The notes: a model not told the origin generated them from the sequence alone. 64,000 nucleotides of DNA from Candidatus Campbellbacteria bacterium (GCA_024653945.1 JANLIT010000002.1:80255-144254); one strand, 5' to 3'. Counted from the stretch's first letter, positions 1,850-61,351 are shown. A program made the numbers and translations.

Positions 1850-1946
1850 CGCATGAGTATAGCAATGTGTCTGTGTTTGTCAACCAAAATCACCACCATG
1901 TTGCATCAGGGTAATTTTATGCGCCCTTATTTTCTTTATTTTTTAT

Positions 1947-2003
1947 CCCGTTAGAGAATATTTCAATACAACGTCTTGTGTGTCACCCAAGTTCTCTAAC
2001 GGG
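1947..2003. repeat. MITE-like inverted-repeat element, copy a (57 bp)
   Basis: Termini CCCGTTAGAGAA ... TTCTCTAACGGG. Flanked by TTTAT and ATTTAT. Ends 11 nt 3' of the stop of the DoxX-like gene. Confidence 0.55.
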
Positions 2004-2014
2004 ATTTATTACAT

Positions 2015-2395
2015 CTATCGAAACCACTCACGTAGTGTTCGTGGCCACGACAGCATCAACAAAAGTGCGAGAGGGGCTCCCCAGTTTGCAAATCGTTCAA
2101 TGAAATCCCAGATTGATTCTCCAACAATTGGACGAAGAAGTGCGGTCCAAAATCCCCACAACACTGCCCACAACAACACAACGCGAATTGGTTTGAGAAG
2201 AACAACAAGCGCAACAAACATATCAGCAACACCAATCAACATAAGAAGCGTTATTGCAGTACCGAGGTCAGCACCAGTTAATTTTTGTATCCAACCGAGC
2301 CACTGTTCTTTTCCATCAAGGGCTAACATACCATGACCAATAAATTCTCCAGCAACCGCAATTCGCAACACCCACTGAATAAGTTTTGTATTCAT
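2015..2395 (-). CDS. DoxX-like small integral membrane protein
   Basis: The ~127-aa product has 3-4 predicted TM helices (GHGMLAL...LIGVADMFVALVVLL...LWAVLWGFW). The start is taken at MNTKLIQ, whose ATG lies in the left flank of MITE copy b. The ORF track extends to 2443. Confidence 0.45.
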   Translation of the reverse strand: MNTKLIQWVLRIAVAGEFIGHGMLALDGKEQWLGWIQKLTGADLGTAITLLMLIGVADMFVALVVLLKPIRVVLLWAVLWGFWTALLRPIVGESIWDFIERFANWGAPLALLLMLSWPRTLREWFR

Positions 2396-2512
2396 CCCGT
2401 TTAGAGGCAGGTCGCGGTCATTGAAAATTTCCGAAACCTGCAAATTATTCTAGTAAAACAACTACTCATTATCCACCATACAATCCCGGAAGCGACCGCG
2501 GCCTCTAACGGG
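2396..2512. repeat. MITE-like inverted-repeat element, copy b (117 bp), with a perfect 6-bp flanking direct repeat ATTCAT
   Basis: Termini CCCGTTTAGAGGCAGGTCGCGGTC ... GACCGCGGCCTCTAACGGG form a ~22-bp imperfect inverted repeat. ATTCAT sits at 2390-2395 and again at 2513-2518. The left copy supplies the ATG of the DoxX-like gene. Confidence 0.6.
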
Positions 2513-2565
2513 ATTCATGTACTAAAAGTATTAAAAATAAACTACCACACCCAGTGTAGCCTTTC

Positions 2566-2931
2566 TTATTTTTTCTTCCTAGACACTGTGTGAATTGCTT
2601 TTAACACCCACTCTGTAAGCACTTCCCTATCTTCAAGCACGTCTGTGGGAACTTCATAATAGTTTTTCAGCACCTGCTCCTTGCTTGGACGAAAACAATC
2701 CATACCTACGTCAATAAATTTCTGTTTACTTTCGTTATCAGTTTTTACATACAGCACGTTATCAGAAATAATCGCAAAAAATATCCCCTCAGCATACAAA
2801 CCAAAACCACCAAACATTTTTCGTGCGGTTACGTCTGGAATAGCCATAAGCTGATCCAGCACAAAGTCTTTAAATGATTCGTCCACAAGTGTCGGGGCGC
2901 CGAGAATCGGACTCGGTCTATCTGCTCCCAA
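2566..2931 (-). CDS. TfoX/Sxy N-terminal-domain protein (competence-regulator family)
   Basis: KMFGGFGLYAEGIFFAIISDNVLYVKTD matches the TfoX_N hallmark (F.G.GL....fa.i....LYlk.d). Confidence 0.65.
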   Translation of the reverse strand: MGADRPSPILGAPTLVDESFKDFVLDQLMAIPDVTARKMFGGFGLYAEGIFFAIISDNVLYVKTDNESKQKFIDVGMDCFRPSKEQVLKNYYEVPTDVLEDREVLTEWVLKAIHTVSRKKK

Positions 2932-2996
2932 AGCAGACGTACTACCGGTATACTACGCCCCGTAACAAAAACAACAATATCATGTCTATACTGATT

Positions 2997-3401
2997 TTAA
3001 TAGACCCTTTCTTGTTTTATATCATTTTTTCTTTCTTCATCGTGCAATATTCGATGACAATTTGCACAAACAACTTCACATTTATTTATTTCCGACTTAA
3101 TACGCGAGAGACCGACCGCACGACGAAATGTTCCGACTGTAAATAATTTATCTTTTCCATTTTTGTGATGGAAATCAAGAACTCTTGGATCTCCAACTCC
3201 GCACCTACTACACCCTTTTTGTTGTTTGTATTCTAGAATTAATTGATAATAACGATTAATAAGCATTTGTTTTGTAATACGGTAACAATCGCGACACTTT
3301 CTGCGCCTGTACACTTTTTTCTCAGTCGTTAGAGCAACCCCAAAGAAGGACTCTGGGAGCGATTTTCCACAATATTTACAAACTTTTTCGCACTTTTTCA
3401 T
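2997..3401 (-). CDS. HNH endonuclease
   Basis: Cys-rich N-terminus plus DFHHKNGKDK...CEVVCANCHRILH, the HNH motif (His-Asn-His with Zn-binding Cys pairs). Confidence 0.8.
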   Translation of the reverse strand: MKKCEKVCKYCGKSLPESFFGVALTTEKKVYRRRKCRDCYRITKQMLINRYYQLILEYKQQKGCSRCGVGDPRVLDFHHKNGKDKLFTVGTFRRAVGLSRIKSEINKCEVVCANCHRILHDEERKNDIKQERVY

Positions 3402-3459
3402 GTCCCAATCCTAGCGCATCAAGATAAATTTGGGATAAAGTAAAGTATCCCAAATTTTT

Positions 3460-3530
3460 CGGGCCGTCGTATAGTGGCAGTACACAAGGCTGGGGGTCTT
3501 GTAGTGAGAGTTCGATTCTCTCCGGCCCGA
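3460..3530 (+). tRNA. tRNA-Pro (anticodon GGG)
   Basis: Acceptor CGGGCCG/CGGCCCG; D-arm GTAT-AGTGGCA-GTAC; anticodon stem CAAGG/TCTTG with loop CTGGGGG; T-arm GAGAG-TTCGATT-CTCTC; discriminator A followed by CC. Confidence 0.75.
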
Positions 3531-3538
3531 CCGTAGTT

Positions 3539-3958
3539 CTAAAGGACATTCTCAATGAAGAGTGTATGAGCTGTTTTGTCCTTTAGATTAAGTCGAATTG
3601 CCACAACATCTACCTGATACCGTGTTTCACGTGAAATATGTTTCTCAACTAGGTATGTCTGAATTGCCCTAGAAAGTCGCTCGAGCTTTTCACGCGTAAC
3701 GTGTTCCTCAGGTCTGATCATCGAGGTTAAACCTTGATAACCTGTTTCACGTGAAACGACACCGTTCCCTGTTTCGCATGAAACACATTTAACTTCAACA
3801 AATCTCAAAACTTTATTCTTTTGGGCAATAATATCTATCTCTCCCCATTTCTTTAGATAGTGTCTTTCTGTAATCTTAAAACCTCGTTTCACAAGAAACA
3901 GACACGCTAATTCTTCTCCTATTTTGCCTATTTTGATGTGTTTTGGGTCATTTTTCAT
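3539..3958 (-). CDS. YraN/UPF0102-family endonuclease-like protein carrying in-frame palindromic repeat insertions
   Basis: N-terminus GKIGEELACLFLVKRGFKI...WGEIDIIAQKNKVLRFVEVK and C-terminus RYQVDVVAI match UPF0102. The central part contains the repeated peptide VSRET, encoded by GTTTCACGTGAAAC palindromes. Confidence 0.6.
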   Translation of the reverse strand: MKNDPKHIKIGKIGEELACLFLVKRGFKITERHYLKKWGEIDIIAQKNKVLRFVEVKCVSCETGNGVVSRETGYQGLTSMIRPEEHVTREKLERLSRAIQTYLVEKHISRETRYQVDVVAIRLNLKDKTAHTLFIENVL

Positions 3959-4008
3959 GGAAAATAAGATTTCATGTGTAACAAATACCTATATGTTTCA
4001 CGTGAAAC
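3624..4008. repeat. Array of five copies of the 14-bp palindrome GTTTCACGTGAAAC (two exact, three 1-2 mismatch)
   Basis: Copies at 3624-3637 (GTTTCACGTGAAAT), 3744-3757 (exact), 3771-3784 (GTTTCGCATGAAAC), 3886-3899 (GTTTCACAAGAAAC) and 3995-4008 (exact, in the promoter region upstream of the YraN-like start). Confidence 0.7.
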
Positions 4009-4061
4009 ACTTATATCGGACATTATTAGAGACAAATTCTATAATATGGCTTAACTGGGCT

Positions 4062-4118
4062 ATTTTACACTGATATTTGCCTTTATTTTACACATGTCCA
4101 ATTGCCTGTCTTTTACAC
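4062..4118. repeat. Three iteron-like direct repeats (A)TTTTACAC spaced 23-25 bp apart
   Basis: ctATTTTACACtgatatttgcc, ttATTTTACACatgtccaattgcc and tcTTTTACACatatcc. They lie in the divergent region between the YraN-like gene and the tRNA cluster. Confidence 0.4.
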
Positions 4119-4285
4119 ATATCCCCGTTGTTGTCCACAGTTTTAGCCATTTTACCCTTTTAAAATAAAGTTTTCTTAAAGACATGGTTGTTTTGTCTTT
4201 ATAAAAATTTTATCTATTATCTTTTGGTCGAGAGTTGGTTAGAATTTGCTAAATTTTTTTATCTGATTTGCTCACAAAAAGATTA

Positions 4286-4317
4286 TTGACATACAAATTA
4301 TCGTATATTGTTATAAA
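4286..4317 (+). promoter_or_regulatory. Candidate promoter for the tRNA-Gly/tRNA-Arg transcription unit
   Basis: TTGACA at 4286-4291, with TGtTATAAA-like extended -10 elements downstream. The spacing is ambiguous. Confidence 0.3.
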
Positions 4318-4388
4318 CATATGGTAAATTCAGTGAAAATAGATATACTGTTCTTTGCGGTGGACTCGTCCGCCGAACAACGTGCAAG

Positions 4389-4459
4389 GCGGGCATGGTT
4401 TAGTGGTAGAACACGTCCTTGCCAAGGACGAGACGGGAGTTCGATTCTCCCTGCCCGCA
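4389..4459 (+). tRNA. tRNA-Gly (anticodon GCC)
   Basis: Acceptor GCGGGCA/TGCCCGC; D-arm GTTT-AGTGGTA-GAAC; anticodon stem CGTCC/GGACG with loop TTGCCAA; T-arm GGGAG-TTCGATT-CTCCC; discriminator A. Confidence 0.8.
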
Positions 4460-4498
4460 CACAGAAACAGGTTATAATAAATAAAGCTTATTAATGTT

Positions 4499-4570
4499 GC
4501 TCCCGTGGTGAAATGGATATCATGACAGGCTTCGAACCTGTTGTTGGGGGTTCGAATCCCTCCGGGAGCA
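4499..4570 (+). tRNA. tRNA-Arg (anticodon TCG)
   Basis: Acceptor GCTCCCG/CGGGAGC; D-arm GTGA-AATGGATA-TCAT; anticodon stem ACAGG/CCTGT with loop CTTCGAA; T-arm GGGGG-TTCGAAT-CCCTC; discriminator A. Confidence 0.7.
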
Positions 4571-4592
4571 CAGAGTGTAATACAATGTTTTC

Positions 4593-4712
4593 GAAGGGAT
4601 TCGAAAGTCGGAGCGCGACGGCGCGACACAGTAGGTCAATGTACTCATTGAGACGGGCAATCAGTAGATTGTGCCGAAGTAGGCTTCGAAAATAATTGCG
4701 ATCGAATCCCTT
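4593..4712 (+). other. Long-range inverted repeat (GAAGGGATTCGA ... TCGAATCCCTT) enclosing ~97 nt of the cca leader
   Basis: 12-bp arms at 4593-4604 and 4702-4712. The interior has a tandem GCGCGAC GGCGCGAC. It ends 20 nt before the cca ATG. Confidence 0.3.
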
Positions 4713-4732
4713 ACAATAGTTGCAAGAACTGT

Positions 4733-6196
4733 ATGAAAGACCTACCAAAAGAAGCGCGGGGGATTGTGGCCCTACTGCAACATAACGGGTACGAGGCGTA
4801 TCTTGTTGGTGGTTGCGTGCGCGACATGTACCTTGATTGCACACCAAAGGATTGGGATGTGACCACAAATGCAAATCCCGAACAAATTCAGGCGCTTTTT
4901 CCACATACTTTTTATGAAAATGAGTACGGAACCGTTGGTGTGGTGAACGATGAAACAGAAGATGCAACACTCAAAGCAATTGAAGTCACGCCATATCGAA
5001 AGGAGAGCGGGTACAGCGACAAACGACACCCAGATAGTGTTTCTTTTGGCACATCTCTTGAAGAAGACCTTGCGCGACGAGATTTTACCATCAACGCATT
5101 CGCGTTTGATACCACAACCAACACACTTGTTGATGTATATGATGGAAAAAAAGATTTGAAGGACAAACTCATCCGCGCGGTTGGTGATGCGGAGAAACGA
5201 TTCAATGAAGATGCACTCCGCATGTTGCGCGCTGTTCGTTTTGCAACGGAATTTGGTTTTGATATTGAAAAAAAGACGTCGGATGCAATTCTCAAACACG
5301 CAGATGACCTCGCACATATATCGGCCGAGCGTATTCGTGATGAATTCACTAAAATGCTTTTGTCAGACAGCCCATTTCGTGGAGTACGGCTTCTCCACGA
5401 ACACAAATTGCTCTCGTACATTGTTCCAGAATTAGAGAAGGGAATTGATGTGGGTCAAAATCAGGCCCATTCTTACACGGTTTTTGAGCACATTGGACGA
5501 ACACTGCAAGCTGCTGCTGATAAAAAATTCTCACTTGAACTTCGTCTTGCGACACTTTTTCATGACATCGCAAAACCACATACAAAAGCGATGGACACAA
5601 AGAAAAATGATTGGTCTTTCCATGGACATGAAGTTGTGGGCTCACGTCTTGCACGCAAACGAATGCAAGAGTTACGTTTTCCAACAGAGATTGTTGAAAA
5701 AGTGACGAAACTTGTTCGATGGCACATGTTTTTCTCCGATACAGAACAAATTACACACTCCGCTGTGCGTCGTCTCATTCGAAATGTTGGTCCAGAGAAT
5801 GTTGAAGATATTTTGAATGTGCGCATCTGTGATCGAATTGGAACAGGACGACCAAAAGAACAACCATATCGTTTGCGTAAATACAAAGCCATGATTGATG
5901 AGGTGCTGCGCGACCCGGTGTCTGTTGGAATGCTTAGTATTGATGGTAAACAGCTTATGGAGCTCCTTGGAGAGCGTCCCGGACCACGTATTGGATGGAT
6001 TCTCCATGCACTCCTTGAAGATGTACTTGATGACCCAACACAAAATACAAAAGAGTATTTGGAAACTCGCGCACAAACACTTGTAAAGCTTCCCGACGCA
6101 GAACTCCGCATACTTGGTGAAAAAGGGAGAGATGCACAGGAAGAAGCTGAGGAAAAAGAAGTTAAAAAAATCCGCTCCAAACATCACGTGGAGTGA
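4733..6196 (+). CDS. cca: CCA-adding tRNA nucleotidyltransferase / poly(A) polymerase family protein with HD domain
   Basis: GGCVRDMYL...DWDVTT nucleotidyltransferase head, RDFTINA motif, and an HD domain (LFHDIAKP...HGHEVVG). Confidence 0.85.
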   Translation: MKDLPKEARGIVALLQHNGYEAYLVGGCVRDMYLDCTPKDWDVTTNANPEQIQALFPHTFYENEYGTVGVVNDETEDATLKAIEVTPYRKESGYSDKRHPDSVSFGTSLEEDLARRDFTINAFAFDTTTNTLVDVYDGKKDLKDKLIRAVGDAEKRFNEDALRMLRAVRFATEFGFDIEKKTSDAILKHADDLAHISAERIRDEFTKMLLSDSPFRGVRLLHEHKLLSYIVPELEKGIDVGQNQAHSYTVFEHIGRTLQAAADKKFSLELRLATLFHDIAKPHTKAMDTKKNDWSFHGHEVVGSRLARKRMQELRFPTEIVEKVTKLVRWHMFFSDTEQITHSAVRRLIRNVGPENVEDILNVRICDRIGTGRPKEQPYRLRKYKAMIDEVLRDPVSVGMLSIDGKQLMELLGERPGPRIGWILHALLEDVLDDPTQNTKEYLETRAQTLVKLPDAELRILGEKGRDAQEEAEEKEVKKIRSKHHVE

Positions 6197-6312
6197 GAAG
6201 AAGCTTGTTAGCTTCGTTAGCTTGTAGCTTATTAGCTTTTTAGTTTGTGGAGAAAACAAAACCTGCCCGAGCCGAAGCTGGGGCAGAAGTGCGTCGCTGT
6301 GGACAGAGAAAG

Positions 6313-6537
6313 CTATCTCTGCCAAACCCGAAGTGCCGGGAATCCGTTCACAGCGTCTAGAGTCATCAGATTACCAGGAGCCGTAACGTAAAGTTCACTC
6401 TCCCGAGTCCTCGCTTGAATCTCCGCGTGTTGGAAGAATCCCCTCAGTGAGGTGGTGGCGGTCTTGTTCATGATGAATACCTCACCAAACGGGTTCACGC
6501 GGACGAGAATGCGACCGTCGTCAAAAACCGTTTTCAT
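6313..6537 (-). CDS. Hypothetical small protein (74 aa)
   Basis: Intact ORF with a strong sigma70-type promoter upstream on the minus strand. No recognisable domain. Confidence 0.4.
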   Translation of the reverse strand: MKTVFDDGRILVRVNPFGEVFIMNKTATTSLRGFFQHAEIQARTRESELYVTAPGNLMTLDAVNGFPALRVWQR

Positions 6538-6589
6538 GACTTTCTCCTCCTGTTTTTTTGAGCACGGTTGCTCGAGAACATTCGGTAGT

Positions 6590-6617
6590 ATTATATTACA
6601 TTTTTTATTATTGTCAA
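6590..6617 (-). promoter_or_regulatory. Sigma70-type promoter (TTGACA-16-TATAAT) for the 6313-6537 gene
   Basis: The minus strand reads TTGACAataataaaaaatgtaaTATAAT. The 20-bp GC palindrome sits 19 bp upstream of the -35. Confidence 0.55.
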
Positions 6618-6635
6618 TATTCTCTAATTCGCACG

Positions 6636-6655
6636 CCTGCCTGCCGGCAGGCAGG
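6636..6655. repeat. Perfect 20-bp GC palindrome, copy 2 of 2
   Basis: Identical to 1830-1849. The flanks show the two copies are mutually inverted (aatt-palindrome-cg is shared). Confidence 0.6.
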
Positions 6656-6702
6656 AATTAGTCCTCTTCCAACTTCCATTATTTTAAATTAAATACGCAT
6701 AC

Positions 6703-6748
6703 GCATATGTGACTTATAGCCACGACCGTGGCTATAAGTCACATATGC
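6703..6748. repeat. 46-bp near-perfect palindrome with 22-bp arms (GCATATGTGACTTATAGCCACG AC CGTGGCTATAAGTCACATATGC)
   Basis: The arms are exact reverse complements around a 2-nt centre. Preceded by tandem ACGCAT ACGCAT. Sits in a ~700-bp noncoding region. Confidence 0.6.
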
Positions 6749-7133
6749 AAAAAGCCGCCCTGAAGTCACGGAACGCAATTCGGTGAAGAATAACCTTCTG
6801 TAACAGTGCAAGACGGCCTTGGCTTAGGATTGCTCGGAGAGAAATCCTTGTGTGGATATGGGGTAAGAAGAGCCTGAACGTATAGACTGGAGGTGCGTAT
6901 GTGGGGCGCACTATTCTCGTGTCTTGTCTTGCGAGACAATTTCACGCAAAACCGTTTGTTGCTTTTTTCCTCAATCCCTATCCTTGGGAAAGAACGAATG
7001 TGTCAGAAAGAGGCAAGGAGATTTGTGTGGGGTATATTTAATTGGGCCCCTTTGCTCTGACTCTGGTAGTAAGTGTAAAGGACATGCATACGAGTGTAAA
7101 GGACAAAAGTGCATAACTCTACTCTTAATGTCC

Positions 7134-7169
7134 TTTACTCAGCACTTAAGAATTTAAGTGCTGAGTAAA
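7134..7169. other. 16-bp stem hairpin (TTTACTCAGCACTTAA-GAAT-TTAAGTGCTGAGTAAA) plus upstream GTAAAGGAC repeats
   Basis: GTAAAGGAC occurs as two direct copies (7073-7106) and one inverted copy that pairs with them. Structured noncoding region 3' of xth. Confidence 0.35.
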
Positions 7170-7180
7170 TGCCGGACATC

Positions 7181-7208
7181 AAAAAACCTTTGTATACAAA
7201 GGTTTTTT
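7181..7208. terminator. Bidirectional rho-independent terminator
   Basis: AAAAAA-CCTTTGTATACAAAGG-TTTTTT, a perfect palindrome with flanking A and T runs. Confidence 0.7.
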
Positions 7209-7218
7209 GGCTTACTAC

Positions 7219-7261
7219 TTTTCCCGACGTTTCAGTCGGGACCCCGACCACAGCGTCGGGG
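7219..7261. repeat. Two-hairpin 46-bp repeat, copy A, abutting the xth stop
   Basis: CCCGACGTTTCAGTCGGG plus ACCCCGACCACAGCGTCGGGG. Copies at 22322-22367 and 24344-24392 (inverted) have a few loop changes (copy C almost identical, copy B three or four differences). Confidence 0.65.
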
Positions 7262-8035
7262 CTACTTACTACTTACTTCTAACCCAACCGGGCAGTGATC
7301 GGAGCCGTACACATCCGAAAGTATTTCTGAACGTTTAATTTTTGGAAGAAGATTTTGAGAAACAATAAAGTAGTCCAATCGCCAACCAATATTTCTATCT
7401 CGTGCGCGAGAAATGGTATCCCAATATGAGTAGGCATTTTTTGTGTCGGGATGAAAATGTCGGAATGTGTCAACAAATCCGGCGGAGAGAACTTCATCCA
7501 TCCACGCGCGTTCTTCTGGCAAAAATCCAACGTGTCCTTCATTTTCTTTCGGTCGAGCAATGTCTATTTCTTCATGCGCGACATTGACGTCACCACAAAA
7601 AATCACCTTTTTGCCATTTTTCCTTAGTTTTTTAATGTGTTCCAAAAATGCGTCATAAAAATCAAGCTTGTACTGAAGCTTTTCTGGAGAACCCCCTCCG
7701 TTTGGAAAATAGACATTCAAAAGTACAAAATCTTCAAAAGCGGCTTCAATAAGACGTCCTTGGGTGTTGAACTTTTCAGGTAACACATCAAAAGAGACAC
7801 TTTTAGGCTCTTTTTTTGAGTACACGGCTACACCACTATATCCTTTTCGTTCTTTTGATGAGTTGAAATAGGCAAAATAACCTTCTGGCTTTTGAACTTC
7901 TGGAGAAAGTTGGCCTTCTTCTACTTTCGTTTCTTGAAGGCAAAAAATATCAGGTTTTTCTTGTTCAAACCAATCCCAATACCCTTGATTAAAGAGTGAG
8001 CGAAGTCCGTTTACATTCCACGAGATAATTCTCAT
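7262..8035 (-). CDS. xth: Exodeoxyribonuclease III (AP endonuclease)
   Basis: MRIISWNVNGLRS...IFCLQETK...GDVNVAHEEIDI...SDHCPV are the ExoIII/EEP signatures. The start is taken at MRIIS; the ORF track extends upstream to 8074. The ATG lies within the left flank of MITE copy c. The last four codons plus stop are encoded by CTACTTACTACTTAC. Confidence 0.85.
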   Translation of the reverse strand: MRIISWNVNGLRSLFNQGYWDWFEQEKPDIFCLQETKVEEGQLSPEVQKPEGYFAYFNSSKERKGYSGVAVYSKKEPKSVSFDVLPEKFNTQGRLIEAAFEDFVLLNVYFPNGGGSPEKLQYKLDFYDAFLEHIKKLRKNGKKVIFCGDVNVAHEEIDIARPKENEGHVGFLPEERAWMDEVLSAGFVDTFRHFHPDTKNAYSYWDTISRARDRNIGWRLDYFIVSQNLLPKIKRSEILSDVYGSDHCPVGLEVSSK

Positions 8036-8154
8036 CCCGTTAGAGATAGGAAATGCGGGGCATTTCCGTATCATGTTTATCTTTCTTTAAAAATTCGACC
8101 ATGTTTTTAATTCTCCACACATCGCCCGTTCAAAACTGAGAGATCTCTAACGGG
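8036..8154. repeat. MITE-like inverted-repeat element, copy c (119 bp)
   Basis: Termini CCCGTTAGAGATAGG ... GAGATCTCTAACGGG. Flanks are TTCTCAT and ACTCAT (shared CTCAT). There is an internal hairpin GGAAATGCGGGGCATTTCC. It starts immediately after the xth ATG. Confidence 0.6.
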
Positions 8155-8297
8155 ACTCATACAATGATTGTATCCAGCACTAAACGTTTCTCCAAATGCA
8201 CTGGAGCATTTAGTGCTGGATGTACTTTCTGATACAATACACGTGCTTATAACATTATTATTTAAATACATTTGGAGGTCTGGCCTCCCAAAAACAT

Positions 8298-8582
8298 ATG
8301 ATGAAAGGAAAATGTGGAGTGGCAAAAATTATTTGGATTTTGATTATTGTTGGAGCAATTAACTGGGGTCTTGTAGGTCTCGGTGGATTCTTCCAGAGTA
8401 ACTGGAACATCGTCAACCTTATTTTTGGCAGTTTGGGATGGTGGGTTGAGGGTGTTGTCTACGTTCTCGTCGGAGTAGCCGGTGTTATGTCACTCTTTCA
8501 CTGTAAGTGTGCGAAATGTAGTACGTGTGAATCATGTGGTGCAAACAACATGAAAAAGGAAGTGCCAATGCAACAGATGTAA
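8298..8582 (+). CDS. DUF378-family small membrane protein with a C-terminal Cys-rich tail
   Basis: IWILIIVGAINWGLVGL...VVYVLVGVAGV is the DUF378 hallmark (two TM helices). The tail CKCAKCSTCESC is unusual for the family. Confidence 0.55.
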   Translation: MMKGKCGVAKIIWILIIVGAINWGLVGLGGFFQSNWNIVNLIFGSLGWWVEGVVYVLVGVAGVMSLFHCKCAKCSTCESCGANNMKKEVPMQQM

Positions 8583-8590
8583 TTCAGAAA

Positions 8591-8626
8591 AGACCGGACC
8601 TCCTCTTGGAGGTCCGGTCTTTTTTA
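8591..8626 (+). terminator. Rho-independent terminator after the DUF378 gene
   Basis: Stem AGACCGGACCTCC/GGAGGTCCGGTCT with loop TCTT, then TTTTTT. A second GC hairpin at 8627-8668 faces the convergent minus-strand gene. Confidence 0.7.
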
Positions 8627-8688
8627 TAACAACACCCCGCTCGAGTACGAGCGGGGTGTTGTGTTGTTATTGGAACTTTTAGGAGAAA

Positions 8689-11127
8689 CTAATTACTATA
8701 CTTAGTTAGTGGCACTGTTCCGTTTGTTGGTTGTGAATACAGTGTTTGAATTACACAACTAGTGTATGTGAGCCAAGAACTCAACATGGTGTCAGCACCT
8801 ATAACTTGTGTTCCGCTGACTTGTAATGTTGGAAGGTGGCAACCTGGAACCTCACCTCCACCCCCACCTCCGTCTCCGGGAGGAACTGGGGGTACCGGTG
8901 GTCCCACTGGCACCACATTACTATCAAAGAGATACGCGTTACGTATACCTCCGGCCATTATTTTTCCCTGCGGAGTCATAAAGAGGTGTAAAGGTTGTCC
9001 TGCCGATTCACCTATACTGGCTGTTCCATAATCTCGGCGTAGAGGTGCTTCTGCGACACCGGCAAGCGTGCCGTCGTGCCACAAGGTGAAATATCTCTCA
9101 TCAATACCCGGATAACCAGCAAACACCAGGTATGAGCCGGCAACCGCAAAAGCAGGAAATATGGCCATGTCTCGTCTGTTGATATTTGTAAGAACGCTTT
9201 CTGGTACTGTCAATTCTCCTGCAGGTTCCAATCCGTTTGCGCCACTCGTAAAAAGAAAAATTCGATTTGAGTAATTAAGATTTCTTCCCGACTGGCCAGT
9301 GTGTGAAGTCACCGCCAAGCGTTTTGGAGTAGATGTGTAATCAATTGCCACTCTTCCGGGACACAAATTATCCGGCAGTGTTAGTTCTTGTACTGATGTG
9401 ATCCCACCGTCTGATTCGGCTCTGAAAACAGTTGGCGTATACGAGACTGGGGTAGTACACCTGTCAGATGAATTTCCTACGCGTCCAAGTATGTAATCTC
9501 CAAAACCCACAAGAGGTCTCAGCGAGTGTTCCTCTCGCTCCGCAAGTATCTGGAGTGATGGTGTGGAAAGGGTTACATCTCTACCACTGTTTCCATCAAG
9601 ACCAACTTGTACGTTACCGATTACTTTGCCATTGGCGGCGGCAAAGTTACTGTTGCGAATAATAAAATTTGATGAGGGTGAGAAAAGTACACCCCCCCCA
9701 GAAACTTGATAATATCCCGCGTGTTCGGCTCCCGCTCCATACGTATTTCCCGAGACACTTCCACCGTTCGAGCGAACTGCCATAAAAAATCCTCTATCAC
9801 CATCGGCAACCATTTGAGATTCGGCATTTCCGTGGAAGAACAGCGTCTGAAACCTCGAACCACCATCCATGCAAAGATCACGTTGAGAAATAAGTGTACC
9901 ATCATCTTTAAAGAACCACGCTCCACCTTGTCGAAAAGGTGGATATGAGCTCAAGTAATTTTGATCTTTAGGACCACCACACGCACCAGAGAATGCGAAC
10001 GCACCGTTTGCATATGCTGCACTTTGGATATTCTGAGTGCCAAATCTTGGTCCTGGATACACCATTAAATTAGGTAGATCAAGCAGTGTCGCAACAAGCG
10101 GTAATCGCAAACCCGCCTCTGGCGCAGCAACAAAAGGCACTTCAAGATCACAGTGACGCGTTCCGTGAGAATTTGAAACCGTCATAGTAAAGACAGTGTC
10201 TTTTGTTATTGGTCCAGTTACAATACTGCCTGTTTGTTGAGAGTCCGCACGTGCAGGATCTGGAGCACCAACAGTTGGTGTACCTGAAGGAGTAGCTGGA
10301 GCATCATCAGCTTCTATTGAAATAGTTGTTGGTAAATATCCCACGGTGTACGCGAGCGTTACCGTTCCCCCCGTTGCTGTTTCCGGATTACTTCTCATTT
10401 GACAATTTGGTGCGTGGGGAGAGGGTGGTGCACCAGAAGTAACAGTTAAATTTGATGATATGGTGAGGCCGGCATACATGGCGTTAATCTGCGCAACACC
10501 CGCATGAAGTCCCAAAATTTCTTGTAGATTTCCACCGTGAGGAGAACCTGCGTTGTGAATAATCGTACCTTCCTGTGGAGAAGAAAATGTTGTGTAGCCA
10601 CTCACATCATTCCAACTCCCTCCATCGGCACTATATTCGGAACCAAAAATAGCGGGGTTACTACCGGCCTGCACCGTTTGAGGCGCTGGGTTCATGCGCA
10701 AAGATGGCCCGCCAGATGGAGCCGCTGGTTCATACCCAAGAAAAAACAATATTGAAGTTTCAAAAGGACATTGAATTGTTGCGGTTGGGGGATTACCTGC
10801 ATTAATCAACACAAGACGAGAGGTTCCAGCCATTGGCTCTACATCAATACGATATCCCCCAGGAGGTAATGGGGCACCACTATTTGTTGTGTTAACACTC
10901 TGAAAGGTTTGACCATTTCCTGGGAAAAAACGTGATGAGGAAATGACGGTCCCAGCGGGTCCTGTGATAGTAAAGGCGGGGTATGTGTTGAGAGGAAGTT
11001 GGCTACGTGAAAAACCGACACTAATATGATTACATGCATCCACAGCTGATGCGTTTTGAATATTAAACGACGCAAACCCAACAACGCTCAGAGCGACGAC
11101 AGCTATTCCAAGGAGATATTTTTTCAT
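8689..11127 (-). CDS. Large secreted protein (812 aa), possibly beta-helix/adhesin-like
   Basis: Signal peptide MKKYLLGIAVVALSVVGFASFNIQNASA. Gly/Ser/Asn-rich with repeated NG/SG motifs and a C-terminal PPVPPVPPGDGGGGGG linker. Function unknown. Confidence 0.6.
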   Translation of the reverse strand: MKKYLLGIAVVALSVVGFASFNIQNASAVDACNHISVGFSRSQLPLNTYPAFTITGPAGTVISSSRFFPGNGQTFQSVNTTNSGAPLPPGGYRIDVEPMAGTSRLVLINAGNPPTATIQCPFETSILFFLGYEPAAPSGGPSLRMNPAPQTVQAGSNPAIFGSEYSADGGSWNDVSGYTTFSSPQEGTIIHNAGSPHGGNLQEILGLHAGVAQINAMYAGLTISSNLTVTSGAPPSPHAPNCQMRSNPETATGGTVTLAYTVGYLPTTISIEADDAPATPSGTPTVGAPDPARADSQQTGSIVTGPITKDTVFTMTVSNSHGTRHCDLEVPFVAAPEAGLRLPLVATLLDLPNLMVYPGPRFGTQNIQSAAYANGAFAFSGACGGPKDQNYLSSYPPFRQGGAWFFKDDGTLISQRDLCMDGGSRFQTLFFHGNAESQMVADGDRGFFMAVRSNGGSVSGNTYGAGAEHAGYYQVSGGGVLFSPSSNFIIRNSNFAAANGKVIGNVQVGLDGNSGRDVTLSTPSLQILAEREEHSLRPLVGFGDYILGRVGNSSDRCTTPVSYTPTVFRAESDGGITSVQELTLPDNLCPGRVAIDYTSTPKRLAVTSHTGQSGRNLNYSNRIFLFTSGANGLEPAGELTVPESVLTNINRRDMAIFPAFAVAGSYLVFAGYPGIDERYFTLWHDGTLAGVAEAPLRRDYGTASIGESAGQPLHLFMTPQGKIMAGGIRNAYLFDSNVVPVGPPVPPVPPGDGGGGGGEVPGCHLPTLQVSGTQVIGADTMLSSWLTYTSCVIQTLYSQPTNGTVPLTKYSN

Positions 11128-11157
11128 GAGTATATATTACTAATAGTTCTTTACATT

Positions 11158-12090
11158 CTACTCTTTTTCGCGATTAGTGTGAAACTTGCTGTGGACTTCT
11201 TTGAGGTGTTTGTCCGTCACGTGTGTATAAATTTGCGTCGTGGTGATGTTAGCGTGACCAAGAAGCGCTTGTACGCTTCGTAAATCGGCACCATTCTCCA
11301 GTAGATCAGTGGCAAATGAGTGGCGAATGACGTGTGGTGTTACTTTTTTGCTAATACCAACCTTAATCGCATATCGTTTTACCAATCTTTCAACAGAGCG
11401 CGCGGTGAGACGCAAATCTTTTGCATTCTTTGACGCTTTTCCAAACTGAATGAACATCGCATCATCCATGTCGGTTCGTTTCTTCAAATAGTCGTTGACG
11501 GCATCACGCGCGGAAGGGGAGACAAACACAACACGCACCTTTTCACCTTTTCCACGAATGGAAAATTCCCCGCGTGACAAATCAATATCTCGAGGAAGTG
11601 ACACCAGCTCTGACACGCGCATGCCTGTTGAAAAAAGAAGTTCCAATAATGCCTTATCACGAAGAGCGCCGACCAAATCGCCCTCGGGCGCTTTCATAAT
11701 GCGGACCAATTCAACTGGCGTAATCAAATCAAGGTCGCGATCTCCGACTTTTGCGAGTTCAATGGCTTCTGGTTGGAGTGTTGTAATGTTTCGTTTGCGT
11801 AAAAATTTCAAGAATGCCCGTAAGGCAATCAAATAATAATTTTGTGTGTTCTTTTTGAGCGTTCCGCTGTTTTGTGCTTCATGTTTCATGGTTCGTGCCT
11901 GCTGACGATTGAGCCACAAACGAAACTCGCGCACGGATGTTTCGGTGATATCAACAGGTTTAGAAATCTTAGAAAAACCAACAAATCTTGAGAGGTACCT
12001 ATCATAGTTTTCAATCGTCTTGGTAGAGCGCCCACGTTCAATCTCAAGGTATTCAAGAAATTCGTGTTTTAATTTTTCAACAGGGTTCAT
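11158..12090 (-). CDS. Tyrosine recombinase, XerC/XerD family
   Basis: N-terminal SAM-like domain (EFLEYLEIERGRSTKTIENY), catalytic LRHSFATDLLENGADLRSVQALLGHANITTTQIYTHV, R..H..RY motifs. The ATG lies within the left flank of MITE copy d. Confidence 0.85.
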   Translation of the reverse strand: MNPVEKLKHEFLEYLEIERGRSTKTIENYDRYLSRFVGFSKISKPVDITETSVREFRLWLNRQQARTMKHEAQNSGTLKKNTQNYYLIALRAFLKFLRKRNITTLQPEAIELAKVGDRDLDLITPVELVRIMKAPEGDLVGALRDKALLELLFSTGMRVSELVSLPRDIDLSRGEFSIRGKGEKVRVVFVSPSARDAVNDYLKKRTDMDDAMFIQFGKASKNAKDLRLTARSVERLVKRYAIKVGISKKVTPHVIRHSFATDLLENGADLRSVQALLGHANITTTQIYTHVTDKHLKEVHSKFHTNREKE

Positions 12091-12208
12091 CGCACTAGAG
12101 ATAGAAAACGTGAAACGTTTTCGTGGTTATATTGGTAATGTACAAATCAATACACACATTTTTTGTTCGAGTAAGAGTGGTTTTCATAACTGAGAAATCT
12201 CTAATGTG
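12091..12208. repeat. MITE-like element, degenerate copy d (118 bp)
   Basis: CGCACTAGAGATAGAAAACGTGAAACGTTTTC ... CTGAGAAATCTCTAATGTG, homologous to copy c (8036-8154). Flanked by TTCAT (12086-12090) and ATTCAT (12209-12214). Confidence 0.5.
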
Positions 12209-12274
12209 ATTCATACTCCCTATTCTCCCGCACTTTCTAGTGTCGCACAATATTATTTTGCGCAACTTCTCTGC

Positions 12275-12303
12275 TTGACAACAAGAGCTATTCTGTGTAG
12301 AGT
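12275..12303 (+). promoter_or_regulatory. Sigma70-type promoter TTGACA-17-TAGAGT
   Basis: cTTGACAacaagagctattctgtgTAGAGT. An AAGGAGAGG SD and the ATG at 12340 follow. Confidence 0.5.
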
Positions 12304-17573: not shown

Positions 17574-17603
17574 AGCCCCACGCTTCTCTGTGGGGCTTTT
17601 TCT
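17574..17603 (+). terminator. Rho-independent terminator
   Basis: Stem AGCCCCAC/GTGGGGCT with loop GCTTCTCT, then TTTTTCTTT. Confidence 0.6.
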
Positions 17604-17646
17604 TTACAGGAGTTTCGCTCCTGTGCAGGAGCGAAACTCCTGTAAA
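17603..17646. repeat. 44-bp perfect palindrome H3 (TTTACAGGAGTTTCGCTCCTG TGC AGGAGCGAAACTCCTGTAAA)
   Basis: Shares the outer arms TTTRCAGGAGT...ACTCCTGYAAA with 31956-31999. The inner arms differ, and in each copy the two strands change together so the stem stays perfect. Confidence 0.6.
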
Positions 17647-31955: not shown

Positions 31956-31999
31956 TTTGCAGGAGTCTTGCTTCTGTACAGAAGCAAGACTCCTGCAAA
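31956..31999. repeat. 44-bp perfect palindrome H4 between the pcrA stop and the rsmA start
   Basis: TTTGCAGGAGTCTTGCTTCTG TAC AGAAGCAAGACTCCTGCAAA. Same family as 17603-17646. Confidence 0.6.
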
Positions 32000-32007
32000 A
32001 TAAAAAC

Positions 32008-32808
32008 ATGGCACACCGTGCAAAAAAAGAACTTGGACAAAATTTTTTGAAATCTAAACTTGCGATTAGCAAAATCGTTGAAGTGGCTTCCTTATCCGCA
32101 ACAGACACCGTTCTTGAAATTGGACCAGGCAAGGGAGCACTTACACGAGCACTCCTTGATACTGGATGCACTGTTATTGCAATTGAAAAAGATGGTGAAC
32201 TTATTGTATTGTTGCAAAAAACTTTTGCAGAAGAGATTGCATCAAAAAAACTAACACTGATTCAAGGCGACATTCGCACTGTTGATTTTTCTCATTACCT
32301 GCTACAAGCTACGAGCTACAAGCTCATTGCCAACATTCCCTACTACATCACGGGAGAAATTTTAGAATTATTTCTTGAACACGGACCACAACCAGAACGC
32401 ATTGTGGTACTTGTACAAAAAGAAGTTGCACAACGAATTGTAGCACGTGATAAAAAAGAAAGTATTCTCTCACTGTCGGTGAAAGCGTATGGCACACCGA
32501 AGATTGTGATGAATGTGTCAAAGAAATATTTTTCTCCTGCACCAAAAGTTGATTCGGCCGTGTTGTGCATTTCAGATATTTCAAAAAAGAAATTTGCAGG
32601 TGGTGATGAAAAGAAATTTTTTACACTCGTCAAAGCTGGCTTCGCACACAAACGAAAACAACTCGTCCCGAATCTTGCGAGCCTGGTACCAAAAGAAACG
32701 CTTTCGCGTTTCTTGACGGAGCACGGACACTCCGCGAGGGAGCGTGCGGAGGAATTGTCGGTTGATGATTGGCTTGCGTTATCTCAAACTACAAATCCGA
32801 CCCTGTAA
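32008..32808 (+). CDS. rsmA: 16S rRNA (adenine1518-N6/adenine1519-N6)-dimethyltransferase
   Basis: GQNFL, SAM-binding VLEIGPGKGALT, and NIPY motifs. The start is taken at MAHRAKKELGQNFL. Confidence 0.85.
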   Translation: MAHRAKKELGQNFLKSKLAISKIVEVASLSATDTVLEIGPGKGALTRALLDTGCTVIAIEKDGELIVLLQKTFAEEIASKKLTLIQGDIRTVDFSHYLLQATSYKLIANIPYYITGEILELFLEHGPQPERIVVLVQKEVAQRIVARDKKESILSLSVKAYGTPKIVMNVSKKYFSPAPKVDSAVLCISDISKKKFAGGDEKKFFTLVKAGFAHKRKQLVPNLASLVPKETLSRFLTEHGHSARERAEELSVDDWLALSQTTNPTL

Positions 32809-33922
32809 TAAATGATATAACCCCCATGGTTGGAATAAGAAGTGGCTCACCTTCGTATGTGATATAACAGGTTTGGGTTCCTGGTACATACAATCCTATT
32901 GTCTTCGACGCAAAGGGCATATTCCAGTTCGCATATCCTTGAGCATATGTGTACCCGACCCATGCAGGTGTGAGCATGCCCGGGGGAGCAATGACGATTG
33001 CCCATGTGTCGCTGTAATAACAGAAGAAACGATAATAAATAGTTCCACCAAAAGGAAGTAGGCTGACGGCAAGTGCTTCTTTTGGTTTTAAAATAGTAAC
33101 AACCGACGTTAAGAAGCGAAAAAGGAGGTTCCCTGTTTTTTGTGCTTGAGGAATCGCCCAAGTAATGTCGTCCGAGGACTGTATTAATTCAATAATATCT
33201 TTTTTTGAGTCTTTACGAATTTGGTTCTTAACAGCATCTTTTGTTTTTGAATCCATGTCATTCAAATATCCTCCCTCATCCAAAAAGGCAATGAGTATTT
33301 CAACATTGTTTTCATTTTGATTTTGTACGAGATCCATCACCGCCCTTGTCGTCGGCGGACTCGCAATGGTTTCTGGGACAATCTCCGTATCCTTTCTTGC
33401 CATCAACATCTCTGTATCAGAAATAACCACCAAATTCATGCGCGACACAATACTGGTAAATAGTTCTTTTGTTTTTGCATCTGGGCCCACTTCAGCAGGT
33501 ATAGTACTGCCAGTGCCCATATCTTCAATGACAATAGTAGGTGTATCACTTATAAACGCACGCGTACTTGGACCAAAAAAACCGGTTCCTGACACTAATC
33601 CAGCTGGTATAAGTATTTCTTCGCGATACAGCTCCTGATACCTCCGTACCGCATCAGCGGTCAGCACACCATAATACGACGTTTCATACCCCGGAGACCC
33701 GTCGCCTGCTTCCGCAACATGCGTTACTGTGTTTTGATTCAAAAGTATTTGTAACTGCCACACATCACCACCAGAGTCGCCGAGACGCAGGTTGCGGGAA
33801 AACGTTTCCGCAGAAGCACGGGCGGACAGCAACAAAAAAAATACACCGATAAAAAAACTGGCGCCCAATACCAGACGTGCGCTGGAGGGCGTGCCCCAAA
33901 AAGCCTTTTTGTGCGTGGACAT
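32789..33922 (-). CDS. Secreted protein with an N-terminal peptidoglycan-binding (PG_binding_1-like) domain
   Basis: Signal anchor. GDSGGDVWQLQILLN...GYFGPSTR is the PG-binding repeat. The C-terminal domain is unknown. Confidence 0.5.
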   Translation of the reverse strand: MSTHKKAFWGTPSSARLVLGASFFIGVFFLLLSARASAETFSRNLRLGDSGGDVWQLQILLNQNTVTHVAEAGDGSPGYETSYYGVLTADAVRRYQELYREEILIPAGLVSGTGFFGPSTRAFISDTPTIVIEDMGTGSTIPAEVGPDAKTKELFTSIVSRMNLVVISDTEMLMARKDTEIVPETIASPPTTRAVMDLVQNQNENNVEILIAFLDEGGYLNDMDSKTKDAVKNQIRKDSKKDIIELIQSSDDITWAIPQAQKTGNLLFRFLTSVVTILKPKEALAVSLLPFGGTIYYRFFCYYSDTWAIVIAPPGMLTPAWVGYTYAQGYANWNMPFASKTIGLYVPGTQTCYITYEGEPLLIPTMGVISFITGSDL

Positions 33923-33980: not shown

Positions 33981-34970
33981 ATGCAACCTGATTCTTTTTT
34001 ACACAAACCAAGCAAACGTATTTTTGCCCTCGGAATAATTGCTATCGCGGTGATTGCTTCTGTTGTTCTTTTTAAAATAAAACCATCAACCACCCAACAG
34101 GGCGTGCTCAAAAATGAGGTGGTAAGCGGTACCATTGTTACCGAAATAGATTCTGATGCAGACGGACTCAAAGATTGGGAGGAGGCACTTTGGGGTACCG
34201 ACCCAAAAATGACGGACTCGAATGGAGATGGAATTGGTGACCTTGCAGAAGTGCGAAATAAAAAAATCGAAATACAGACGACACGAGAACAAATTCTTAA
34301 TTCTGCAACGAGCAGTATGTTTTCTTATTTTGAACAGGGTACAAACATCACCAAAACCGATGCTCTTTCTCGAGCACTCTTTGAACAAGTTATTGCATTT
34401 AAAACTGCGGGAATTCCTCTCACGAAAGAAGATGCAATACACATCGCTTCAACGCTCGGAAGTGTGATTGAACAGGCACCAGACACAAACCAGAAACAAT
34501 TTCAATTAAGCAACCTCAGTATTATTGAAACACCAACCACTGCACAGTTACATACCTATGGAAACACTGTTGCAGGAGCGCTTAAGGTTACTGTGTCCGA
34601 ACAAAATAACGAATTTTTTGTATTTGAAGAGTTTGCAAAAACAGGAAACGTTGCCTCTTTTGTAAAACTGAGCCCCGTTATTCAGCACTACAAAGATGTT
34701 GTTGCCAAGCTACGCGGTATTGCCACCCCACGAGACATTTCCGCAAGCTACCTTGATTTTATTAATACAACACAAATAACAGCAACTATACTTGGACAAC
34801 TTCAGACCGCCTCCGTCGACTCCGTGGCTATTATTCCCGTGTTACAAACATACCAAACAAACTACGACGCCCGAGTTGCCGCACTTCGTGCCATTAAAAC
34901 GTATCTTGTTGCGCAAAATATCACCTATACCGACTTTGAAGACGGGTTTTTACTTGTTACTATGGACTAG
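33981..34970 (+). CDS. Hypothetical N-terminally anchored protein, first gene of the T4SS-like cluster
   Basis: N-terminal TM helix IFALGIIAIAVIASVVLF. No recognisable domain. Confidence 0.4.
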   Translation: MQPDSFLHKPSKRIFALGIIAIAVIASVVLFKIKPSTTQQGVLKNEVVSGTIVTEIDSDADGLKDWEEALWGTDPKMTDSNGDGIGDLAEVRNKKIEIQTTREQILNSATSSMFSYFEQGTNITKTDALSRALFEQVIAFKTAGIPLTKEDAIHIASTLGSVIEQAPDTNQKQFQLSNLSIIETPTTAQLHTYGNTVAGALKVTVSEQNNEFFVFEEFAKTGNVASFVKLSPVIQHYKDVVAKLRGIATPRDISASYLDFINTTQITATILGQLQTASVDSVAIIPVLQTYQTNYDARVAALRAIKTYLVAQNITYTDFEDGFLLVTMD

Positions 34971-34978
34971 TTCTGTAC

Positions 34979-38008: not shown

Positions 38009-38050
38009 GTGGAGTTTTAAGATTGGGGTGGTACGGTTGAGGTACATAAA

Positions 38051-40435: not shown

Positions 40436-40445
40436 AGGGAGATCT

Positions 40446-41559: not shown

Positions 41560-41605
41560 GATATATAACGTGTATCATGTAGCATATAATGCACAACAAA
41601 AATAT

Positions 41606-41633
41606 GTTACATGTTTCGTGTTACATGTTTCGT
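41606..41633 (+). repeat. Tandem 14-bp direct repeat GTTACATGTTTCGT x2, immediately upstream of the PrgI-like gene
   Basis: 41606-41619 and 41620-41633 are identical. Related CATGTAGC/CATGTAAC motifs cluster at 41109-41150 and 41576-41590, flanking the four-helix-bundle gene. Confidence 0.55.
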
Positions 41634-41641
41634 GTCCTACC

Positions 41642-42064: not shown

Positions 42065-42105
42065 GTGTTGGTGAGACGCACTTTCTCGGCTACAATATAT
42101 ACATT

Positions 42106-42777: not shown

Positions 42778-42780
42778 TAT

Positions 42781-44709: not shown

Positions 44710-44716
44710 CCCGGCT

Positions 44717-45520: not shown

Positions 45521-45547
45521 AATATAAAAGAGTGCTAGTATAAAGGT

Positions 45548-46261: not shown

Positions 46262-46262
46262 T

Positions 46263-52935: not shown

Positions 52936-52945
52936 GTGTATTTAT

Positions 52946-53031: not shown

Positions 53032-53033
53032 AC

Positions 53034-61255: not shown

Positions 61256-61316
61256 AGGAGTATGTGCCCATTTTACAGGGTATTTTGATGTGGTCCAAGA
61301 TAAAACTTTAACGGGC

Positions 61317-61345: not shown

Positions 61346-61351
61346 ACTGTT

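Follow-up and report, generated by a model that had tools for sequence, protein, structure and literature searches.

Correia elements of Neisseria (CREE/NEMIS) are non-coding sequences of ~100-150 bp that possess terminal inverted repeats and a short target-site duplication (TSD), have no known transposase, and reside mostly just upstream of genes with which they are co-transcribed; the hairpin formed by their repeats is a substrate of RNase III, and the elements can alter gene expression (PMC10969869). The ERIC (IRU) sequences of enterobacteria, imperfect palindromes of ~127 bp located in transcribed intergenic regions, behave as MITEs (miniature inverted-repeat transposable elements) and exert orientation-dependent effects on mRNA via an RNase E site, and the Rickettsia palindromic elements (RPE) are mobile palindromes of reduced genomes that can be translated within host proteins (PMC10969869). 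Here, we describe a family of short inverted-repeat elements present in seven copies in a 64,000-nt stretch of DNA (the window) from a Candidatus Campbellbacteria bacterium (GCA_024653945.1 JANLIT010000002.1:80255-144254). Their inverted repeats, a duplication of fixed length and variable sequence, the existence of empty sites and the lack of coding capacity together identify them as a new family of MITEs, which is unusual in its rebuilding of start codons, its conservation at the level of structure and the sharing of its termini by several phyla. We consider it probable that these non-coding elements are moved in trans and are also constrained as folded RNA or single-stranded DNA.

In the way it works the element recalls Correia and ERIC sequences, and on one occasion RPE, yet it is a member of none of these families, from which it differs in ends, duplication and host range. 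Correia elements have 26-bp repeats, duplicate TA, are confined to one genus and occur as near-identical copies, whereas the present elements have a 13-bp terminal stem, a 4-bp TNNA duplication and diverse interiors, and are found in many phyla; also unlike Correia elements, they land exactly on start codons and rebuild them. ERIC sequences have a full-length consensus and narrow hosts, whereas here only 9-10 nt per end, with the invariant core CCCGTTAGA(G), are conserved as sequence and the rest as pairing. The likeness to RPE lies in copy f, which is translated as part of RuvB, but RPE typically make in-frame internal insertions, whereas the present copies lie mostly at the exact edges of open reading frames (ORFs), with one co-opted copy giving a new start and N-terminus.

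The first-pass annotation of the window had reported five copies, and all five were recovered (a to e in Table 1); what it had listed as a possible remnant near 61221 proved to be a complete copy of 98 nt (f), and a seventh (g) lies beyond it. The seven terminus-bounded copies measure 57-119 nt each, a density of ~1 copy per 9 kb. With up to one mismatch allowed, the window contains 10 instances of the 10-mer terminus where 1.96 would be expected, a count attained in none of 100 shuffles, and the expectation for the paired-terminus pattern is 0.00. The TSD is perfect in five of the seven copies. Copies a and b had been described as bracketing a DoxX-like gene; they do flank a small gene, b on its start and a just past its stop, but the arrangement is incidental and forms no unit, and the DoxX label stays below threshold (Pfam DoxX, 15.7 bits where the cut-off is 23.6; E = 0.025). 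A composite element made of a, the gene and b was rejected, as the outer flanks differ (TTTA versus TTCA) and the gene encodes an ordinary small membrane protein.

To define the ends more broadly, a species-representative genome collection was scanned with the pattern CCCGTTAGAG, 39-99 nt, CTCTAACGGG, which listed at least 120 stretches; 120 loci together with the window furnished 133 copies with usable flanks for a flank census. The search demanded exact termini and 59-119 nt and so in part imposed both the terminal conservation and the upper length limit; the length histogram piles up at the ceiling. Known copies are 29-123 nt long, rarely ~200 nt, and no ORF is conserved among them. From the outside inwards, the terminal inverted repeat has an outer pair that covaries (T..A or C..G), the core CCCGTTAGAG / CTCTAACGGG and two inner pairs that also covary. 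The outermost pair is complementary in 126 of the 133 copies (T..A in 60, C..G in 66) and matches the far flank in only about half of them, and therefore belongs to the element and not to the duplication. Along the stem, Watson-Crick pairing amounts to 95% at position -1, 88% at position 11 and 90% at position 12, where four pair types occur, and then drops to 33% at position 13; this abrupt break sets the length of the terminal stem at exactly 13 bp. Compensated variants occur at stem position 10 (G:C to A:T in at least 13 copies) and at position 6, where both sides are altered in copy g.

Outside the stem, positions -5 to -2 agree with positions +2 to +5 in 110, 97, 94 and 105 of the 133 copies, and all four match in 82 copies where 9.1 would be expected (maximum 19 in shuffles). 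The consensus of the duplicated sequence is T-N-N-A, with a minor class C-N-N-G; its central dinucleotide is variable, yet matched in 89 copies against 17 expected. The target-site duplication proposed in the first-pass annotation is thus real, but its length is 4 bp and not 5-6 bp: copy b gives the appearance of a 6-bp repeat (ATTCAT) because the extra terminal base pair of the element flanks the 4-bp TSD. With element ends of the form Y...R and a target flanked by R...Y, the hexamer RTNNAY is formed anew on either side at each insertion, and this regeneration of the target accounts for tandem arrays with a spacing of exactly 6 nt. At the lower end of the size range are minimal single hairpins of 29-30 nt, among them 29-nt ones composed only of the two repeats and a 3-7-nt loop (L029 3406-3434, L004 3941-3969, L072 4408-4436 and L065 1252-1280); some are solitary and others sit within longer copies, at the 3' end, so that the partner of the 3' repeat can be near or far.

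Evidence for mobility comes from relatives that were reached via exonuclease III (ExoIII) and RuvB homologues, look-ups of window proteins by exact identity having found nothing. The closest relative found (ExoIII 85% and RuvB 92% identical, both contigs from one sample) is syntenic with the window and carries no copies in 18.9 kb. Four of the seven copies, c, d, f and g, have empty orthologous sites with conserved flanks in relatives, so that presence of the copy in all relatives is excluded at these four positions. The site of copy c, for which the predicted empty junction is CAATCATTGTATGAGAATTATC, is vacant in relatives L121, L123 and L126; at the exoIII start the closest relative reads ...GATATAGTTATCAC|ATGCGT and the window ...GATACAATCATTGT ATGAG-T[c]A-TGAGAATT. 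The start of the recombinase gene that copy d abuts is unbroken in L121, L123 and L125, and at the site of copy g the closest relative (L129) has an intact TACACT versus TACG[g]TAAACT in the window. Copies are therefore present in some relatives and absent from others; they are gained, and they can be lost cleanly. Two further elements were seen among these relatives. In L125 a different 101-nt element occupies the exoIII start codon (1757-1857), with an upstream flank that does not match (CGTG versus TGAA), which may reflect replacement or decay, and L123 carries a type B copy with CTCA/CTCA flanks at 2824-2941.

Bacteria of the candidate phyla radiation, whose genomes are tiny and closely packed, are considered poor in mobile elements. 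The position of the present element relative to genes shows how a transposon can occupy the only positions that are 'free' where intergenic space is nearly nil, as the element rebuilds the start codons on which it lands. Fifty-four of the 133 copies (41%) directly border on a codon, ATG, GTG or TTG, with which an ORF of 60 residues or more begins; the A or G of the rebuilt start is the last base of the element, and the TG belongs to the duplication. The upstream duplicate can still be read as a start codon in 42 of these 54 copies, and elements with C..G ends have GTG downstream and ATG upstream. With the element taken out computationally, 46 of the 54 have a frame that closes no more than 20 codons upstream, and only four offer another in-frame start 15 or more codons upstream, so that the codons abutted are the true gene starts. 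Gene ends are used as well: the stop codon of the incoming gene falls within the duplication in 13 cases, and an ORF ends at a TAG inside the repeat in 10. In the window, start codons are the site of b, c and d, and f lies one codon in; g interrupts a -10-like box, e falls on a stop codon, and a is 11 nt past one. The family has altered the 5' ends of the essential genes exoIII, xerC/D (recombinase type) and ruvB.

One practical consequence of the family is that start codons will be miscalled systematically. In the public annotation, exonuclease III (P0001, 270 residues; window 7262-8074, minus strand) begins at an ATG inside copy c, whereas the Pfam domain and the relatives place the true start at 8035, 13 codons downstream of the annotated one. 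Most genes in this genome are without a Shine-Dalgarno sequence and in many a TAnnnT hexamer, as in TACAAT-ACGCTC-ATG and TATACT-TTCACC-ATG, precedes the ATG by 6-7 nt (gene starts in Table 1), a pattern which suggests that leaderless mRNAs are widespread in this Campbellbacteria genome. At copy c, a native TACAAT + 6 nt + ATG remains upstream, at ~8160-8175; as this promoter precedes the upstream duplicate, the element should make up the initial 125 nt of the mRNA.

At ruvB, the element has been turned into coding sequence. Copy f supplies the ruvB start codon and 13 N-terminal residues: an element-internal ATG (61256-61254, minus strand) now opens the frame, and the 'TLTG' of the RuvB N-terminus is the 3' repeat in translation. 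The pre-insertion start predicted from the sequence is ATG|TCAA|GTCCC (MSSPSKK), with the element inserted into TCAA, and the nearest RuvB homologue does start MSSPSKKP, encoded by ATGTCAAGCCCCTCC, matching the predicted empty allele. Three other RuvB homologues start like the window's protein, two of them with MTHSPDTEKSLAG and MAPLSDNDKTLTG and the third with a 13-residue start. In the DNA of the first two lineages (L127 and L128) there is a colinear 98-nt homologue of copy f whose 5' repeat has decayed and whose now-coding 3' repeat has been kept. A neighbour-joining tree of RuvB interleaves the two states, pairing the filled window with the empty P0121, the filled P0122 with the empty P0123, and the filled P0124 with the empty P0127 and P0129, which would imply either three or more seamless losses after an old insertion or the repeated insertion of related copies at one hot spot. 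Either history, repeated loss or repeated gain, would be read here from the tree of one protein.

The interiors of the elements vary in sequence and are organized by pairing. All seven window copies fold into strong hairpins, better than shuffled controls (z -2.8 to -5.4), and the termini always close the structure. Long copies (112-119 nt), viewed with the gene at right, have a conserved 3' module: the dinucleotide AC, then a 7-bp hairpin (loop 3-4 nt), a T, the two pairs that covary and, after these, the 3' repeat and the ATG, the hairpin thus being placed 3 nt from the 3' repeat. Among 24 distinct stems of this 7-bp hairpin, 166 of 168 pairs are Watson-Crick, the other two being T.G and none A.C, with 2-4 pair types per position. 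A second architecture, which includes copy b, has an inner helix built by the two ends (CGCGGTC with GACCGCG); some subfamilies have an additional covarying hairpin and a AAAAGTCGAT motif in common, and short copies (60-63 nt) form three-way junctions. At start codons the long copies are strongly polarized, 30 having the hairpin end towards the gene and 3 away from it (p = 1.4e-6). Within the element, -10-like TAnnnT hexamers show no positional peak and sigma-70-like promoter matches are not above shuffled controls; an internal promoter was rejected on these grounds and because, by inspection, the 3' repeat cannot give a -10 box at the 6-7-nt spacing of this genome. An upstream mini-ORF coupled to the UAA of the 3' repeat was also rejected, being present in three copies only and not general. 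Rfam returned no match for any copy at the gathering score, nor at E <= 5 over 1900-12300.

Among the matches listed, identical termini occur in at least 120 species, distributed over Saccharibacteria and many Parcubacteria lineages (Patescibacteria), Omnitrophota, Planctomycetota, Nitrospirota, Elusimicrobia, WOR-3, Desulfobacterota-type metagenome-assembled genomes and others. Genomes rich in copies include JAZDNT010000003.1, CAZBLD01, PCTT01 and MHJF01. The taxonomy of metagenome-assembled genomes can mislead for short contigs, but the matches on several Omnitrophota and Planctomycetota contigs, and on a Nitrospirota contig of 1.7 Mb, are secure. The presence of common ends in distant phyla of the same groundwater and sediment habitats makes the element a marker of gene flow between them. 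The sole archaeal match listed (L092 5266-5343, on a contig binned as a Methanosarcinales archaeon) has flanks AGCAA / CAAGG without terminal pair or duplication, and is probably a chance match or a mis-binned contig.

As the first-pass annotation had stated, no transposase is visible in the window, no such domain being detected in any ORF of at least 150 residues. The few terminus pairs 250-6000 bp apart with matching duplications, which were considered as autonomous copies, enclose MoxR/DUF58, solute-binding and pilin genes and no transposase. No recurrent neighbouring gene was found around the copies: an all-against-all BLAST of 780 neighbouring ORFs, made in search of a linked protein family, gave housekeeping clusters only (type II/IV secretion ATPase, EF-Tu, ABC, glycosyltransferase, RF-2). 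The element was absent from the viral contigs searched for carriage by phages, and no Y1/RAYT gene was seen among the neighbours of the copies or in the window. In the searchable literature the terminus strings gave only unrelated primer matches, and searches under MITE-related terms returned nothing on such elements in these phyla and no published description; a 2024 census of MITEs is without mention of Patescibacteria (PMC11602168).

With respect to a source of the enzyme, the ends of the element begin with CC(C), its 4-bp duplication has T...A outer bases, as does the TTAA of piggyBac, and it can be lost seamlessly. In the ISfinder table, members of the IS1380 family have Cc/g ends and 4-5-bp repeats. 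Excision of piggyBac is seamless (PMC7351741), and IS1380 transposases have been used as the prokaryotic outgroup of piggyBac (PMC10140906). The present element differs in that the central two target bases are free and an extra covarying pair stands between the CCC and the duplication. Kinship with IS1380/piggyBac, with which the ends and the TSD length are compatible, is therefore a lead only, no transposase of this or any other family having been found with these ends.

From these features we infer a DDE-type cut-and-paste or copy-paste chemistry, mobilization in trans and an RNA-level role. An enzyme provided in trans would insert the element at T-N-N-A and duplicate the target, the 4-bp duplication pointing to a 4-nt staggered cut. 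With R as the last base of the element and T as the first of the duplication, insertion into A|TGAN keeps an intact ATG or GTG at the 3' edge of the element, and insertion into TAAA keeps the stop codon intact; by preserving start and stop codons, copies survive exactly at gene boundaries in very compact genomes, and old copies can be co-opted, as at ruvB. The fixed 13-bp stem, the covarying 7-bp hairpin and the 10:1 orientation bias argue for constraint as a folded single strand, most likely the transcript, since stem length, covariation and polarity are not needed by a double-strand transposase site. Hence, although the flank census, the empty sites and the folding support the first-pass reading of a non-autonomous mobile hairpin or MITE, its addition 'rather than a regulatory site' may be too strong, the orientation bias and the covarying stems pointing to transcript-level constraint. 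Several observations weigh against a trans-mobilized MITE. Copies in the same genome share almost nothing between their termini, unlike a recent burst from one master copy, and the same covarying stems and strand bias, superfluous for a transposase that reads double strands, suggest a single-stranded intermediate or an RNA function. The identity of termini across phyla was imposed by the exact-match search, and by our own estimate ~30 chance matches are expected in the full 596-Gb scan, even though the flank signature marks at least 126 of the 133 copies as genuine. Finally, a search of 129 loci with ~0.9 Mb around 130 copies, of the window and of viral contigs gave neither an autonomous element nor a transposase with such ends; several accepted MITE families, e.g. 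Correia, are likewise without a related autonomous insertion sequence.

The polarity and pairing of the copies could also mean that the element is primarily a functional, mobile 5'-leader or RNA-processing module whose mobility is secondary, an explanation which overlaps with that of a structurally constrained MITE and which, on its own, we regard as possible though rather unlikely. The 13-bp stem stacked on the 7-bp hairpin would span about two helical turns, and an RNase III-like cut or a bypass is predicted, such that the gene keeps its start although the leaderless-type promoter lies ~125 nt away. The 30:3 bias and the fixed, covarying stem lengths are as expected of such a module, as is copy d, whose pairing has been kept despite diverged termini, and Correia elements provide a precedent in being cut by RNase III at their repeats (PMC10969869); moreover, insertion on a start codon should be costly for leaderless-type genes mostly without Shine-Dalgarno sequences, and yet the essential genes exoIII, xerC/D and ruvB tolerate it. 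Speaking against a dedicated leader are the three long copies reversed at start codons, the many copies at 3' gene ends, the old ruvB copies in which the stem has decayed and the gene has been kept, the lack of an Rfam match even at the relaxed threshold, and the lack within the element of a positional -10-like signal or of promoter-like matches above shuffles. By analogy, processing of the stem as in Correia would be the most testable idea. If the folded RNA is processed or bypassed, this would be a new way to keep leaderless genes expressed. A more radical version, in which a lineage with leaderless-type starts tolerates the element on its start codons since it is masked after transcription, either because the rod of stem and hairpin is cut at its base and the mRNA regenerated from the rebuilt AUG, or because the ribosome skips between the duplicate starts in a manner likened to phage T4 gene 60 and the mitochondrial 'byp' elements, strikes us as distinctly unlikely; if true, it would make of the element a mobile self-masking insertion, a DNA transposon acting like a 5'-end intron.

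Two enzymatic alternatives to a TSD-forming transposase were also weighed. REP/BIME sequences with RAYT and IS200/IS605-derived elements resemble the present family in their small covarying hairpins, high copy number at gene ends, strand bias and seamless excision, and the element might analogously be a single-strand hairpin moved by an HUH/Y1 enzyme next to a recognized tetranucleotide on the lagging-strand template. The hairpin covariation, the orientation bias, the minimal 29-30-nt copies and the seamless absence at ruvB in lineages interleaved with filled ones would all fit, but such systems make no target duplication and have a GTAG-type or guide-defined flank, whereas the tetranucleotide here is variable and duplicated, a single target in the empty allele being doubled in the filled one at c, d and f. 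By inspection, no recognition of the guide type is visible, the 4 nt before the hairpin (NNAC) being unrelated to the tetranucleotide that flanks the element; a conserved GTAG-type motif is lacking, and Y1 genes are absent from the neighbourhood of every copy. REP sequences are palindromes of 20-40 nt that flank a RAYT gene, and IS200/IS605 elements insert 3' of a fixed tetra- or pentanucleotide and have distinct left and right subterminal hairpins, whereas here the two ends pair with each other. Movement of this kind is accordingly improbable in our estimation. A site-specific recombination site marking gene cassettes, similar to an integron attC or to Xer/dif, seems barely credible. The 57-119-nt size range and imperfect palindrome are reminiscent of attC, the GTTAGAG/CTCTAAC cores of GTTRRRY / RYYYAAC, and a tyrosine recombinase gene stands directly downstream of copy d; however, the order of the motifs is inverted on both strands (GTTAGAG first and CTCTAAC last, against RYYYAAC ... 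GTTRRRY in attC), the copies are scattered singly among housekeeping genes and not in cassette arrays such as stand beside intI and attI in integrons, the recombinase gene is in place in relatives without copy d, and a 4-bp duplication of variable sequence is not a trace that a tyrosine recombinase leaves.

Table 1. Copies of the element in the window, with flanking duplications and gene context, and examples of gene starts preceded by a TAnnnT hexamer.
Feature	Position	Strand	Form and termini	Flanks	Context
Copy a	1946-2004 (core 1947-2003, 57 nt, plus terminal T..A pair)		short form, termini perfect; RNA fold -24 kcal/mol, z -5.3	TTTA at 1942-1945 and 2005-2008	11 nt past stop codon of 126-residue membrane-protein gene
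Copy b	2395-2513 (core 2396-2512)	-	long form, type B; 1-nt insertion in left terminus (CCCGTTTAGAG); fold z -4.8	TTCA at 2391-2394 and 2514-2517	abuts ATG (2393-2395, minus strand) of the 126-residue gene
Copy c	8035-8155 (core 8036-8154)	-	long form, type A, hairpin P2 at 8049-8067	CTCA at 8031-8034 and 8156-8159	abuts ATG (8033-8035, minus strand) of exodeoxyribonuclease III
Copy d	12090-12209 (core 12091-12208)	-	long form, type A, hairpin P2 at 12104-12122; termini degenerate (CGCACTAGAG..CTCTAATGTG), pairing nonetheless kept at 9/10 positions	TTCA at 12086-12089 and 12210-12213	abuts ATG of XerC/D-type recombinase gene (11158-12090, minus strand)
Copy e	52945-53032 (core 52946-53031, 86 nt)		three-way junction, two G+C-rich internal hairpins; fold z -5.4	TTTA (52941-52944) / CTTA (53033-53036)	right duplication overlaps the stop (TAA, 53034-53036, minus strand) of the gene for a class A penicillin-binding protein, located downstream of dnaN
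Copy f	61217-61316 (core 61218-61315, 98 nt)	-	terminal pair G..C	TTGA at 61213-61216 and 61317-61320	inserted at TCAA right after original ruvB ATG
Copy g	63479-63577 (core 63480-63576, 97 nt)		compensated core variant CCCGTGAGA..TCTCACGGG	TTTA/CGTA on plus strand (= TACG..TAAA on gene strand)	in -10-like box (TAAACT + 7 nt + ATG) of PilB-type ATPase gene 61750-63465 (minus strand)
TAnnnT gene start	48484-49218	-			
TAnnnT gene start	57337	+
TAnnnT gene start	32789-33922	-
TAnnnT gene start	61750-63465	-

The window itself is bacterial DNA, with dnaA, dnaN, ruvB and ruvC, genes for PNPase and a class A penicillin-binding protein, a type IV secretion-like cluster and five tRNAs. Its exonuclease III has 100% identity to a protein encoded on a 238.5-kb contig of a Candidatus Campbellbacteria metagenome-assembled genome. 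In the intergenic region 61334-61749, between the PilB-type ATPase gene and ruvB, a 24-nt inverted repeat (61439-61462 / 61557-61580, 88% complementary, 94 nt between the arms) has the minus-strand sequence GAGAAATCTCTAAGCAAA ... TTTGCTTAGAGGTTTCTC; a stretch of the spacer, GAGGACTTT..GTGCGCCACC, is conserved in L127 and L129, the repeat has no Rfam match at E <= 1, and it could be an undescribed small RNA. Three perfect 21-22-nt palindromes were also seen (31956-31999, 17603-17646 and 6703-6748), the first two having common ends TTTRCAGGAG...CTCCTGYAAA, and these may be a second, unrelated hairpin family or a terminator set. Large ORFs of 812, 1009, 794 and 329 residues without a Pfam domain lie at 8689-11127 (minus strand) and 33981-41108; the 812-residue ORF is conserved in L121 (807 residues) and absent in L123, and the others flank the type IV secretion-like cluster at 41570-47168, which encodes PrgI, a TraG/VirB4-type ATPase and type IV secretion system pilins.

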